Assembly: GCF_988242995.1 (NCBI RefSeq) | Contig: NZ_OZ547043.1 | Strand: one strand, 5' to 3' | Length of the DNA stretch: 64,000 nt | Part shown: positions 10,189-37,718 of the stretch, piece after piece | How positions within the stretch are numbered: the stretch's first letter is position 1 | How the letters are laid out: each line of letters opens with the position of its first letter | Program-made: the position numbers and the translations under genes | The notes under the pieces: model-generated | What the model saw: only the letters and a program-made list of their open reading frames with translations | What the model was told of the DNA's origin: nothing | Databases searched by the model: none

Positions 10189-13100
10189 TTACACCTTTTC
10201 CACATTCACAAGGAAGGACTTAAACTCCGGCGTCTGCGTGTTCGCATCACCAACGAATGGCGTTAACGTATTGGCAATAAAGCCTTTTTTCGCAACACCT
10301 TCATAGCCCCAGTGAATCGGAATACCGATGGTATCGATATCTTTGCCGTTCGCTTTCAGCGTGCGAATACGTTTGGTCACCACCGCTTTGGCTTTGATAT
10401 AGCCACGGTTGGAGGAGACTTTCACTGTATCGCCCTGGGCAATGCCAAGTTTATTCGCCAGCGACTCACCGATTTCCACAAACTGCTCTGGTTGCAAAAT
10501 CGCGTTCAACAGCGCGTGTTTGGTCCAGTAGTGGAAGTGCTCGGTCAGACGATAGGTGGTTCCGACATACGGGAACTTATCGGCTTTACCCAATGCTTCG
10601 GCGTCGTCTTTAAAGATACGTGCAGCCGGGTTCGAGATAACGTTTGGATGCAGCGGGTTAGTTCCCAGCGGCGTTTCAAACGGCTCGTAGTGTTCCGGGA
10701 ACGGACCTTCCGCCATCTTATCGAGGGCAAACAGACGCCCCATGCCTTCCTGCTGCATGATAAACGGCCCGACGCCACTGCCCGGAGGCGCTGCGCTGTA
10801 GTCCGGAATATCCCAGCCGGTCCACTTAGTGCCGTCCCATTTCAGCAACTGACGCTTCGGATCCCACGGGTTACCCTGCGGATCTGCGGAGGCGCGGTTA
10901 TACAGAATGCGGCGGTTAAGCGGCCATGCCCATGCCCAGCCCTGCGTGTTACCGAGGCCAGACGGATCGGCGTTATCACGACGCGCCATCTGGTTGCCTT
11001 CCGGCGTCCAGCTACCGGCGAAAATCCAGCAGCCACAGGAGGTTGTACCGTCATCGCGCAGTTGAGCGAACGAGCTAAGTTGTTGGCCTTTCTTGACGAT
11101 AACCGCACCGGTTGCCGGATCGGTAATATCGGCCAGCGCCTTACCGTTGCTCTCCATCGCCACTTCTTCCGACTTCGGCTCATGCGGAATGGCGTAGTTC
11201 CAGGTCATGTTCAGCACCTGATCCGGGTTTGCGCCACCCTGTTCGGCATACATCTTGCGCAAGCGCAGGAAGATACCGGAGAGGATCTCGCCGTCAGTCA
11301 GCGCAATCCCAGGGGCGTCCGCACCTTTCCAGTGCCACTGCAACCAGCGACCTGAGTTAACGATTGAACCGTTCTCTTCCGCGAAGCAGGTCGATGGCAG
11401 ACGGAACACTTCGGTCTGGATCTTCGACGAGTCAACTTCGTTCAGCTCACCGTGGTTCTGCCAGAAGTTAGAGGTTTCAGTGTTCAGCGGGTCGATGGTG
11501 ACGAGGAACTTCAGTTTCGACAGACAACCGATCACTTTGTTTTTGTTCGGGAATGAGGCAACAGGGTTAAAGCCCTGGCAGATATAGCCATTGACCTTGC
11601 CTTCTTTCATCATCTCGAAGTATTGCAGGACGTCGTAGCCTTTATCCCACTTCGGCAACCAGTCAAAGCCCCAGCTATTTTCCGCCGTCGCTTTATCACC
11701 AAAGAAGGCCTTCATCATAGAGACGAAGAATTTCGGGTAGTTGCCCCAGTAGTTTACCTGGCCTTCCAGCAGCGGTTTTGGTGTGTTGGCGGTAAGGTAG
11801 GTTTGCAGATCGGTCTGCTTCTCGCTTGGCAGCGTCATGTAACCTGGCAGGCTCTGCGACAGCAGCCCCAGGTCCGTCAGCCCCTGAATATTGGAGTGAC
11901 CGCGCAGGGCGTTAACGCCGCCGCCGGCCATCCCCATATTGCCGAGCAGCAGCTGGATCATCGCCATCGTACGAATGTTTTGCGCACCAACGGAGTGCTG
12001 CGTCCAGCCTAGGGCATACAGGAACGAGGCAGTTTTATCGTGAGCACTGGTTTCGGCGATGTATTCGCAGACTTTCAGGAACGCGTCTTTTGGCGTACCA
12101 CAGATGTTTTCAACCACATCTGGCGTGTAGCGGGAAACGTGCTGTTTCAGCAAGTTCCACACGCAGCGCGGATGTTGCAGCGTGGTATCGCGTTTGGCGA
12201 AGCCGTTTTCGTCCAGTTCATAAGTCCAGGAGGATTTATCGTACTTGCGTTTTTCCGCGTCGTAGCCGGTGAACAGGCCATCTTCAAAGCCGTAATCCTC
12301 ACGCACGATCAGGCTGGCGTTGGTATAGGCTTCGGTGTATTCGCGGTTGAATTTTTCATTGTTCAGCAGGTACAGCAATACGCCTGACAGGAAAGCAATG
12401 TCAGTACCGGAACGAATAGGGGCATAGTAGTCAGCCACCGCAGCCGTACGCGTAAAGCGAGGATCGATCACAATCAGCTTCGCGCCATTGTGAATTTTGG
12501 CTTCCATCGCCCAGCGGAACCCGACCGGGTGAGCTTCAGCGGCGTTACCGCCCATCACCACGACGAGGTTGGCGTTCTTGATGTCGACCCAGTGGTTGGT
12601 CATCGCACCGCGACCAAATGTTGGAGCAAGACTTGCTACCGTTGGTCCGTGTCAGACACGCGCCTGGTTGTCGACCGCGAGCATACCCAGCGCGCGGGAG
12701 AATTTTTGCGTTAAATAGCCGGTTTCGTTACTCGACGCGGAAGCACACAGCATCCCGGTGGAGAGCCAGCGGTTAACGGTCACGCCTTCGGCGTTTTGCG
12801 CAATGTAGTTAGCATCGCGGTCTTCTTTCATCAGTTTGGCGATGCGATCAAACGCCTCTTCCCAACTGATTTGCTGCCATTTATCAGAACCTGGCGCACG
12901 GTATTCCGGAAACTTCAGACGGCTTTCGGAGTGGATGAAATCCACCAGGCCAGCGCCTTTCGGACAAAGTGCACCGCGGTTGACCGGGTGATCCGGATCG
13001 CCTTCGATATGGAAGATAGATGCTTTGGCGTTTTTTGCTCCGTCACCGAGGCTGTACATCAACAGCCCACAGCCTACGGAACAATAGGTGCAGGTATTAC

Positions 13101-13239
13101 GGGTTTCGCGGGTGCGCAGCAGTTTATACTGCCGGGTTTCCGCGAGTGCTACGCTGGGTGCAAAACCCAGTGCCGCTGCCGTGGTGCCTGCCATACCGCC
13201 AGCGCAGATCTTAAAGAACTGCCTTCTGCTGACCTGCAT
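10189..13239 (-). CDS. fdoG: formate dehydrogenase-O major subunit, selenocysteine-containing molybdoenzyme; one CDS read through an in-frame UGA
   Basis: ORFs 12652..13239 and 10189..12603 are in the same frame, separated only by TGA at complement 12652..12654 (context ..ARV-U-HGPTVASLAPTFGRG..); N-terminal twin-arginine signal RRQFFK. Confidence 0.95.
12608..12654 (-). other. selenocysteine recoding site: UGA (complement 12652..12654) plus putative SECIS hairpin just 3' of it
   Basis: in-frame TGA in fdoG; downstream mRNA GGACCAACGGUAGCAAGUCUUGCUCCAACAUUUGGUC can form a stem-loop; by analogy with fdhF/fdnG. Confidence 0.7.
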
Positions 13240-13432
13240 GGATTGCTCCTTGTTTCGACATTGTCACGTCCCATTTACATTCGCTTGCTGCGTGTGCAGG
13301 GAGTGGGAGTTATTTTTCTTTGCGGAAGGGGCCGCAAAGGTCCAGAATTGGCTCAATTTCCCTCCATCCAGGAAGGGTTTGTAACAGAATACCATAATGT
13401 TGGTGTGTGTGTTCTTATCTGGTTAAGAGAAA
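13240..13432. promoter_or_regulatory. divergent promoter region between fdoG and fdhD
   Basis: 193-bp intergenic region between divergently transcribed genes; individual sites not resolved. Confidence 0.5.
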
Positions 13433-14266
13433 GTGAAAAAAACACAGCAAAAAGAAATCGAAAATGTGACAAGTGTCACAGGTGTTCGTCAAATTGAGTT
13501 ATGGCGGCGTGATGATTTACAACACCCACGGTTAGATGAGGTGGCGGAAGAGGTTCCCGTTGCGCTGGTCTACAACGGCATTTCGCATGTGGTGATGATG
13601 GCGTCGCCCAAAGACCTTGAGTACTTTGCGCTCGGTTTTTCGCTTTCCGAGGGGATAATAGAAAGTCCGCGCGATATCTTCGGCATGGATGTCGTTCCTT
13701 CCTGTAATGGTCTTGAAGTGCAAATTGAGCTTTCCAGCCGCCGCTTTATGGGGTTGAAGGAGCGCCGCCGGGCGCTGGCGGGACGTACGGGCTGTGGCGT
13801 ATGCGGCGTGGAGCAACTTAATGACATCGGAAAACCGGTGCAGCCGCTACCGTTCACCCAGACGTTTGATCTCAACAAACTGGATGATGCATTACGTCAT
13901 CTCAACGATTTTCAGCCAGTGGGGCAACTGACTGGTTGTACTCACGCCGCTGTCTGGATGTTGCCATCTGGCGAACTGGTCGGCGGGCATGAAGACGTGG
14001 GTCGCCATGTGGCGCTGGACAAACTGTTAGGCCGCCGGTCACAAGAAGGGGAAAGCTGGCAGCAAGGTGCGGTACTGGTTTCCAGTCGTGCCAGTTATGA
14101 AATGGTGCAAAAGTCGGCGATGTGCGGCGTAGAGATTTTGTTTGCGGTGTCTGCCGCGACCACGCTTGCTGTAGAAGTGGCTGAACGCTGTAATTTGACG
14201 CTGGTGGGCTTTTGTAAACCGGGTCGGGCAACGGTTTATACCCATCCGCAGCGTTTGAGCAATTAA
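13433..14266 (+). CDS. fdhD: sulfurtransferase FdhD (formate dehydrogenase accessory protein)
   Basis: 277-aa ORF divergent from the fdo operon, as in K-12. Confidence 0.95.
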
Positions 14267-14315: not shown

Positions 14316-14996
14316 GTGAATTTTATTATTTTATTTATAAACAAAACGCGTGTAGTGGTGTTAACGCCTGCGCTGCAACCTATTGATGGCGTGGCGGTAA
14401 GTTATATTGATACTGCCGTGGCGTTGGGTAATACCATTAACGAAATGGATAAATATTACACCCAGGAAAATTATAAAGACGATGCGTTTGCGAAAGGGAA
14501 AACGCTGCACCAGACATTCTTAAAAAATATTGAAGCCTTTGAACCTGTAGCAGAATCTTATCATGCGGCGATTCAGGAAATTAACGATAAGCGCCAGCTT
14601 GCGGAACTGAAAAATATTGAACAAAGAGAAGGGAAAACATTCCACTACTACTCTCTGGCAGTCATGATTTCAGCGAAACAAATTAATAACCTGATTTCGC
14701 AAGAGAAGTTTGATGTTGATGCGGCAATGAAGAAAGTCTCTGAACTGGAAACGCTGGTGGCGCAGGCCAAAGAAGCGGATAAAGGCGGTATGAATTTCTC
14801 GTTCATTAATTCGGCAGACCAGTATCAACTCGAGGCTAAAAAATATGTTCGCCGCATCAGAGATAAAGTCCTGTACTCTGACTGGGATAAAGAGCAACTT
14901 CAGGACGCAAACACAAGCTGGATGGTCGACGACTCATTTCCGCGAGCGTTACGCGAGTACAACGAAATGGTCGATGACTATAATAGCCTGCGTTAA
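14316..14996 (+). CDS. yiiG: YiiG-family protein (DUF3829); possibly 5'-shortened compared with the ~351-aa K-12 form as I remember it
   Basis: 226-aa ORF with a GTG start right after the fdhD terminator; in-frame stop at 14292..14294 rules out an upstream extension. Confidence 0.7.
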   Translation: MNFIILFINKTRVVVLTPALQPIDGVAVSYIDTAVALGNTINEMDKYYTQENYKDDAFAKGKTLHQTFLKNIEAFEPVAESYHAAIQEINDKRQLAELKNIEQREGKTFHYYSLAVMISAKQINNLISQEKFDVDAAMKKVSELETLVAQAKEADKGGMNFSFINSADQYQLEAKKYVRRIRDKVLYSDWDKEQLQDANTSWMVDDSFPRALREYNEMVDDYNSLR

Positions 14997-34724: not shown

Positions 34725-35405
34725 GTGCACAGAAAACCCCCAGCTAGGCTGGGGGTTCCGGAAAGCTTTCAGCTTTGAGCCAGTTATTAAAACCCCTTTT
34801 GATTTGTTAAAACACCTTGCGGTCTGGCAACTGCAAGTGTCAAACAAGAAATCAAAAGGGGGTCCCAATGGGGGACGAAAAGAGCTTAGCGCACACCCGC
34901 TGGAACTGTAAATATCACATAGTTTTTGCGCCGAAATACCGAAGACTGGCGTTTTACGGAGAGAAGCGTAGGGCGATAGGCAGTATTTTGAGAAAGCTGT
35001 GTGAGTGGAAAAGCGTACGGATTCTGGAAGCAGAGTGCTGCGCAGATCATATCCATATGCTTGTGGAAATCCCACCCAAAATGAGCGTATCCGGCTTTAT
35101 GGGATATCTGAAAGGGAAAAGCAGTCTGATGCTTTACGAGCAGTTTGGGGATTTGAAATTCAAATACAGAAACAGGGAGTTCTGGTGCCGAGGGTACTAT
35201 GTCGATACGGTGGGTAAGAACACGGCGAAGATACGTGACTACATAAAGCACCAGCTTGAAGAGGATAAAATGGGGGAGCAGTTATCGATTCCATATCCGG
35301 GCAGCCCGTTTACGGGCCGTAAGTAACGAAGTTGAATGCAAATGTCAGATCGTATGCGCCTGTTAGGGCGCGGCTGGTAACAGAGCCTTACAGGCGCATT
35401 TGAAA
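34700..35405 (+). mobile_element. IS200-like insertion sequence (IS200/IS605 family); boundaries approximate
   Basis: single ~152-aa Y1 transposase ORF flanked by structured ends (hairpins AAACCCCCAGCTAGGCTGGGGGTT on the left, TGCGCCTGT...ACAGGCGCA on the right); no terminal inverted repeats, as expected for IS200; intergenic region is about 0.7 kb longer than my recollection of K-12. Confidence 0.7.
34868..35326 (+). CDS. tnpA: IS200/IS605-family Y1 (HUH) transposase TnpA
   Basis: ORF 34817..35326; start MGDEKSLAHTRWNCKYHIVFAPKYRR; HUH motif HIHMLV; catalytic Tyr near the C-terminus. Confidence 0.85.
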   Translation: MGDEKSLAHTRWNCKYHIVFAPKYRRLAFYGEKRRAIGSILRKLCEWKSVRILEAECCADHIHMLVEIPPKMSVSGFMGYLKGKSSLMLYEQFGDLKFKYRNREFWCRGYYVDTVGKNTAKIRDYIKHQLEEDKMGEQLSIPYPGSPFTGRK

Positions 35406-37618: not shown

Positions 37619-37718
37619 TGCCTGATGCGCTTCGCTTATCAGGCCTACATGAATTCTGCAATTTATTGAATTTGCAAACTTTTGTAGGCCGATAAGGCGT
37701 TCGCGCCGCATCCGGCAT
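37619..37718. repeat. paired REP elements (BIME) after pfkA
   Basis: GCCTGATGCGCTTCGCTTATCAGGCCTAC and GTAGGCCGATAAGGCGTTCGCGCCGCATCCGGCA in inverted orientation. Confidence 0.6.

Follow-up and report, generated by a model that had tools for sequence, protein, structure and literature searches.

The DNA analysed here is a stretch of 64,000 nucleotides (hereafter the window) from contig NZ_OZ547043.1 of assembly GCF_988242995.1. It contains a formate dehydrogenase locus in which fdhD is divergent and fdoG, fdoH, fdoI and fdhE lie in that order on the opposite strand (Table 1). Escherichia coli K-12 MG1655 has the same arrangement, as does E. coli O158:H23 strain CFIAFB20140388, the closest genome (best match, 99.8%), whose FdoG protein is identical. 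The fdoG frame runs from 13239 to 10189 on the minus strand and comprises 3051 nt, or 1017 codons; in translation, its sole internal stop is a TGA at codon 196.

Table 1. Genes and recoding features at the fdoG locus (positions in the window)
Feature	Position	Strand	Remarks
fdhE, formate dehydrogenase accessory protein	7716..8645	-	NF002925, 603.5 bits
fdoI, cytochrome b556 (gamma) subunit	8642..9277	-	NF007924, 453.3 bits
fdoH, iron-sulfur (beta) subunit	9274..10176	-	TIGR01582, 478.7 bits; named fdoH in the annotations of K-12 and the closest genome
fdoG, formate dehydrogenase-O catalytic (alpha) subunit	10189..13239	-	1016 residues plus stop, Sec at codon 196
71-nt block identical between the window fdoG and K-12 fdnG	12587..12657	-	Longest identical run; the next is 36 nt
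SECIS element, Rfam SECIS_3 (RF01989)	12599..12657	-	Begins at the Val195 codon, includes the hairpin and ends 10 nt after it
Complete SECIS stem-loop	12609..12651	-	Supported by folding 46 and 50 nt downstream of the UGA, by the Rfam structure and by pair counts in homologues
Apical hairpin GG-U-AGCAA-GUC-UUGCU-CC, predicted to bind SelB	12623..12640	-	Register as in the K-12 fdhF SECIS
UGA codon 196, almost certainly decoded as selenocysteine	12652..12654	-	Also codon 196 in K-12 fdoG and fdnG
fdhD, accessory sulfurtransferase	13433..14266	+	TIGR00129, 338.8 bits; divergent from fdoG

The list of open reading frames divides the gene into two minus-strand entries, 12652..13239 (195 aa) and 10189..12603 (804 aa). 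The difference between 12652 and 10189 is divisible by 3, and the two entries therefore share one frame. The list starts the second at its first ATG (12603, Met213), the frame being open already from 12651, right after the TGA. The original prediction, that two ORFs of the same minus-strand frame are parted by nothing but a TGA and that naive ORF calling splits the gene, is borne out by these entries and by the 1017-codon translation. On the minus strand, the letters around the stop are GCG CGT GTC TGA CAC GGA CCA ACG GTA GCA AGT CTT GCT CCA ACA TTT GGT CGC GGT GCG ATG ACC. The peptide at the TGA is AVDNQARV*HGPTVASLAPTFGRGAMT, and the region of FdoG around selenocysteine (Sec) 196 is ARV-U-HGPTVASLAPTFGR. 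Both K-12 fdoG and K-12 fdnG carry a TGA at codon 196 in an identical peptide context. In PDB 1KQF chain A (FdnG), to which the window protein aligns end to end (1899.7 bits), the TGA codon falls on X (Sec196), which agrees with the earlier reading of this peptide as the active-site context of molybdopterin formate dehydrogenases.

The gene is orthologous to K-12 fdoG (b3894) and not to K-12 fdnG (b1474). It shares 3014 of 3051 nt (98.8%) and 1015 of 1017 aa with the former, compared with 2290 of 3048 nt (75%) and 782 of 1016 aa (77%) with the latter. The window gene and K-12 fdoG have the same length, the same UGA codon number and the same flanking genes, and they show no nucleotide difference at gene positions 560-680, around the UGA. 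They differ by 37 scattered nucleotide changes, and two residues are altered (S689K and L766Q), both far from the UGA. K-12 fdnG is a paralogue with its UGA at the same codon, but it belongs to the yddG-fdnGHI locus and is accompanied by another gamma subunit. The gamma subunit is what separates Fdh-O from Fdh-N. The fdoI product scores far higher with the NCBIfam cytochrome b556 subunit model NF007924 (Table 1) than with the Fdh-N gamma model NF007558 (243.6 bits), and RefSeq gives fdoI the same product name as NF007924. RefSeq usually labels the fdoG CDS "fdnG".

The protein profiles also run across the stop. The NCBIfam model for the formate dehydrogenase alpha subunit, TIGR01553, aligns its positions 1-194 with the N-terminal piece (271 bits) and its positions 196-1009 with the C-terminal piece (1277.7 bits); the gap between the two is a single position, which the UGA fills. 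The Pfam domains of the fdoG product are Molybdop_Fe4S4, Molybdopterin and Molydop_binding, and the UGA interrupts a single Pfam molybdopterin domain (profile positions 1-67 upstream and 97-300 downstream). Residues 4-10, as read from the translation, form the motif SRRQFFK, which we take to be a twin-arginine (Tat) signal.

A SECIS-like stem-loop had been proposed 3' of the UGA, and the Rfam model SECIS_3 matches there at full length. The match covers 59 nt (model positions 1-59 of 59) and, at 84.3 bits, exceeds the gathering score of 63; its E-value is 1.3e-19 when 6 kb are searched and 1.4e-18 for the whole 64-kb window. The hairpin is real, beyond chance. The SECIS_2 (fdhF-type) model was tried as well and rejected, since it gives 28.1 bits, far under its gathering score of 70. 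The interval originally proposed, 12608-12654, takes in the UGA and the entire stem-loop.

SelB recognition resides in a 17-nt apical hairpin (nt 15-31) located 11 nt from the UGA, with U17, G23 and U24 (PMC8659212). Numbered from the U of the UGA, the bulged U at 12638 is U17, and the loop G, U and C at 12632, 12631 and 12630 are G23, U24 and C25. When the 46 nt after the UGA are folded, 15-16 pair with 31-32 and 18-22 pair with 26-30, with U17 bulged and G23-U24-C25 in the loop. The fold of the window sequence also forms a lower stem, in which 12649-12642 pair with 12617-12609; the Rfam register starts at 12651. Imposed on the window sequence, the Rfam register of the lower stem would contain two non-standard pairs, A8-C48 and A12-G44, and it was not adopted. 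The register shifted by one base, obtained by folding, fits enteric sequences better, whereas that of Rfam fits Pseudomonas-type sequences. Folding the 40 nt after the UGA, the check that had been suggested, gives the apical hairpin alone (-6.0 kcal/mol); the lower stem requires 46-50 nt.

The stability of the 66-nt fold (-19.3 kcal/mol) is not distinguishable from that of dinucleotide shuffles (z = -0.6). In the minimum-energy fold of these 66 nt, a small alternative hairpin, CGUGU/ACACG, replaces the bottom of the Rfam lower stem. Since folding energy does not set the element apart from shuffled sequences, the case for it rests on the match of the covariance model and sequence, on the register and on covariation.

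The experimentally dissected model element is the SECIS of E. coli fdhF, which is SECIS_2-like in the Rfam classification. In fdhF and in the window fdoG alike, the UGA is directly followed by the hairpin, and the bulged U17 and the loop G23-U24-C25 stand at equal distance from the UGA. The UGA of K-12 fdhF is at codon 140 in the peptide ARV-U-HGPSVA, so that the context ARV-U-HGP is common to both genes. The alignment with the Sec contexts of fdnG and fdhF, which had been put forward as a check, thus gives the same codon number in fdnG and the same immediate peptide context in fdhF. The two elements differ in their stem sequences and in the loop, which is GGUC closed by A-U in fdhF and GUC closed by A-U in fdoG. 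The product of fdhF is the cytoplasmic 715-residue Fdh-H.

Covariation was examined in homologues collected with a degenerate DNA pattern for V-U-H-G-P-T-V-A-S-L-A-P, with third positions left free and one genome taken per species. The scan returned at least 120 loci from many Proteobacteria, and the matches listed contain 55 distinct 62-mers, whose encoded peptides differ only by T/S and F/Y exchanges. In a gap-free alignment of these 55 sequences from the matches listed, pairing in the apical helix is complete (100% of cells). At pair 21-33, 34 sequences have GC, 15 have AU and 6 have GU; at pair 24-30, the counts are 29 for AU, 21 for CG and 5 for GC. Neither pair has an unpaired cell among these 55. 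All four columns of these pairs fall at third codon positions, in codons for Val, Ala, Leu and Ala, where the changes are synonymous. Double changes occur in these two apical pairs and in the lower-stem pair 15-42, in a total of 50 cells in the same set from the matches listed. In 500 shuffles, neither the observed covariation score nor the observed percentage of paired cells was reached, and when the 3' partners are shifted by 1-3 columns, pairing drops from 90-93% to 24-53%; these figures come from sequences that are related to each other and from a pattern that left no freedom at the non-degenerate codon positions. Among the 55 listed sequences, the lower stem is 83-88% paired and occurs in two lineage-specific registers, with A12-U45 in enteric sequences, including that of the window, and C12-G44 in the Pseudomonas type. 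The serine codon in the loop is AGU in 55 of 55 listed sequences, although the pattern also admitted AGC and TCN.

Comparison of the window fdoG with the K-12 paralogue fdnG points to constraint on the RNA in addition to that on the protein. The 71-nt block that the window fdoG shares with K-12 fdnG starts 3 nt before the UGA. Across codons 190-216, 26 of 27 third positions are identical between the two genes, compared with 89 of 189 across codons 1-189. Among the scan matches listed, the exact 62-mer of the window is present in 42 of 120 loci, often in both paralogues of one genome. Its carriers include Photorhabdus, Citrobacter, Enterobacter, Providencia, Yersinia, Moellerella, Morganella and Pluralibacter, among others. 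In the 39 exact-62-mer loci with enough flanking sequence, third-position identity to the window is 0.59 upstream and 0.65 downstream; the identity of 1.0 in the 62-nt core follows from the way the loci were selected, and the flank values alone are informative. Throughout Enterobacterales, the 62 nt of the element are frozen in fdo-type and fdn-type paralogues alike.

From the sequences compared, the conservation of the 62-nt block in enterics seems to go beyond what the U17, G23 and U24 contacts and base pairing would need. It seems excessive because in other Proteobacteria these sites are free to vary, with compensation. One conceivable explanation, which we consider rather unlikely, is that an additional and so far undescribed constraint acts in enterics, such as one on the lower stem, one on the sequence that follows the hairpin, or co-adaptation with enteric SelB, or else that gene conversion between fdnG and fdoG has been recurrent.

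The TGA at 12654..12652 is almost certainly the Sec196 codon of fdoG, read under direction of the SECIS element to yield one 1016-residue selenoprotein. In the proposed mechanism, the mRNA directly 3' of the UGA would fold into the bacterial SECIS hairpin, whose apical part, with its bulged U17 and its loop G23-U24, would be bound by the elongation factor SelB carrying GTP and Sec-tRNA(Sec). Kept by the hairpin at a constant distance from the UGA, this complex would let the approaching ribosome insert Sec without termination. Sec would thus be delivered to the ribosomal A site at the UGA in competition with release factor 2. The product would be a single 1016-residue, Tat-exported molybdo-selenoprotein with Sec as the active-site residue, serving as catalytic subunit of the respiratory Fdh-O. 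For SelB binding and actual Sec insertion, we infer from the literature on the identical K-12 sequences that both probably take place here.

The required genes are a species-wide property. Among 5426 complete E. coli genomes, selA-selB are present in 5425, selC in 5424 and selD in 5425. The 64-kb window itself contains no tRNA gene, and no sel gene was met in its annotated parts. Fdh-O has been described as a selenium-dependent molybdo-selenoprotein, and Fdh-N/O activity is gone in a selC mutant (PMC3160892). The only selenopolypeptide genes of E. coli are fdnG, fdoG and fdhF (PMC4009273).

Three other readings of the locus deserve consideration. It might be argued that this strain carries a true nonsense mutation at the TGA and that its fdoG is a pseudogene. 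The two pieces of fdoG that a naive ORF caller yields, as well as a hairpin folding energy that is unremarkable by itself, would be in keeping with this. However, the TGA is also codon 196 of the K-12 reference genes fdoG and fdnG, and a segment of 141 nt surrounding it shows 99% identity or more in 5419 of 5433 matching records, which come from 5425 of 5426 complete E. coli genomes. Conservation of the TGA across E. coli genomes excludes a strain-specific nonsense mutation. Moreover, the 820 codons downstream of the TGA are intact and account for the 1277.7 bits of the TIGR01553 match given above, RefSeq annotates a single unflagged 3051-nt CDS, and the window FdoG shows no differences from the protein of the closest genome. 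The stop is thus present in functional orthologues, and neither a disruption of the downstream frame nor relaxed constraint was seen there. We regard inactivation of the gene as hardly conceivable, in line with the earlier statement that this is the known Sec codon of FdoG and not a pseudogene.

The UGA might mostly terminate translation, or a near-cognate tRNA might read through it without selenium, Sec insertion being minor. UGA read-through is indeed very inefficient, at 1-3% of that of common amino acids (PMC8659212), so that termination does compete. But the UGA and a full SECIS are kept across at least 120 loci from many Proteobacteria, which shows selection for recoding, and the loss of Fdh-N/O activity in the selC mutant (PMC3160892) speaks against this alternative as well. 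In K-12, the functional product has been reported to be full-length FdoG containing selenium. This alternative bears on yield and does not offer another mechanism, and it is exceedingly improbable as an account of the codon. The remaining question is one of name. In most E. coli RefSeq records the gene goes under fdnG, the gene of the nitrate-inducible Fdh-N; the matching CDS is named "fdnG: formate dehydrogenase-N subunit alpha" by PGAP, and TIGR01553, the best NCBIfam model, bears the Fdh-N name. Against this stand the nucleotide identities to the two K-12 genes given above, the window neighbours fdhD, fdoH, fdoI and fdhE, where K-12 fdnG lies instead between yddG and fdnH, and the gamma subunit, which at 453 bits for the cytochrome b556 model and 244 bits for the Fdh-N gamma model is of the Fdh-O kind. 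There is scarcely any chance that the gene is fdnG. The RefSeq name of the window CDS is a naming artefact: it is the name of a generic model and says nothing about the locus.

The feature described here, the standard Sec codon of fdoG with its recoding hairpin in an unbroken gene, is already known. It had been presented from the start as not novel, and fdoG is indeed an established selenoprotein gene (PMC3160892, PMC4009273). Its value lies in annotation. A caller unaware of Sec gives ORFs of 195 aa and 804 aa, or a pseudogene, whereas recognition of the UGA together with the SECIS element restores one selenoprotein of 1016 residues. Every detail that could be tested in the reading made without database searches proved right, and in a scan of genomes the fdoG case makes a clean positive control.

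The gene at window 10189-13239 (-) is the orthologue of K-12 (MG1655) fdoG, encoding the formate dehydrogenase-O alpha subunit, and the genes that follow it are labelled fdoH and fdoI. Nevertheless, in the E. coli genomes among the RefSeq matches listed (H1-H23), PGAP gives the fdo-locus gene for this subunit the name 'fdnG: formate dehydrogenase-N subunit alpha'. The mislabelling is a systematic artefact of the generic model TIGR01553, from which the name is inherited. The encoded protein differs from that of K-12 at two residues, S689K and L766Q (codons 689 and 766), and is identical to that of E. coli O158:H23 strain CFIAFB20140388, the closest genome.

Downstream, 12 nt lie between fdoG and fdoH, and the 4-nt overlaps (ATGA) of fdoH with fdoI (window 9274-9277) and of fdoI with fdhE (8642-8645), all on the minus strand, suggest from the gene arrangement that each of these two pairs is translationally coupled. 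Upstream, the Rfam model FdoG1_thermometer (RF02778) matches window 13210-13408 (-), a region that runs from the 5' leader of fdoG through its ribosome-binding site to codon 10, with a score of 32 bits (E = 3.9e-05), below the gathering score of 50. Because good alignment is limited to the 3' third of the model, this match may reflect homology of the leader and start codon rather than a conserved thermometer. Other Rfam matches in the window, included only if above their own gathering scores, are collected below.

Further RNA elements in the window matched by Rfam models
Element	Position	Strand	Score (bits)
STnc490 Hfq-binding sRNA	34735-34858	+	146
ES036/CssrF sRNA	37641-37682	-	48
ClpQY promoter element	51333-51390	-	64
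L31 ribosomal-protein leader	56002-56054	+	60

Around the fdo locus, the window differs from K-12 as follows. Between fdhD and frvR, 470 bp are absent (window ~14355-14362), so that yiiG has lost its start and initial third; the leftover ORF (14316-14996) matches the C-terminal ~210 residues, and the same remnant is annotated as a partial pseudogene in the closest genome. About 600 bp including yiiF are missing between yiiE and fdhE (7627-7653). Finally, an insertion of ~2 kb lies between fabY and yiiE (~4839-6885). The closest genome is collinear with window 3-7782 at 98.7% identity, and its copy of the insertion holds a truncated hypothetical gene and a transposase gene.

The lower stem of the SECIS hairpin (window 12609-12651, -) occurs in two lineage-specific registers (columns 7-16 and 41-49 of A1, the alignment of the 55 distinct 62-mers from the 120 listed loci): Pseudomonas-type sequences pair C12-G44, the Rfam register, and enteric sequences pair A12-U45, shifted by one. 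In the minimum-energy fold of 66 nt, a small hairpin, CGUGU/ACACG, replaces the bottom of the SECIS stem, and its loop contains the U and G of the UGA.

The 71-nt SECIS block (window 12587-12657, -) is the same in fdoG and its paralogue fdnG at every synonymous site. The exact 62-mer of the window is present in 42 of the 120 loci among the matches listed, from many Enterobacterales genera, and in the 39 of these with enough flank the third positions on either side are only ~60-65% identical to those of the window. In Proteobacteria outside the enterics, the same synonymous sites vary, with compensation. The identity of the enteric block may be due to stronger selection in enterics or to gene conversion between the two paralogues.
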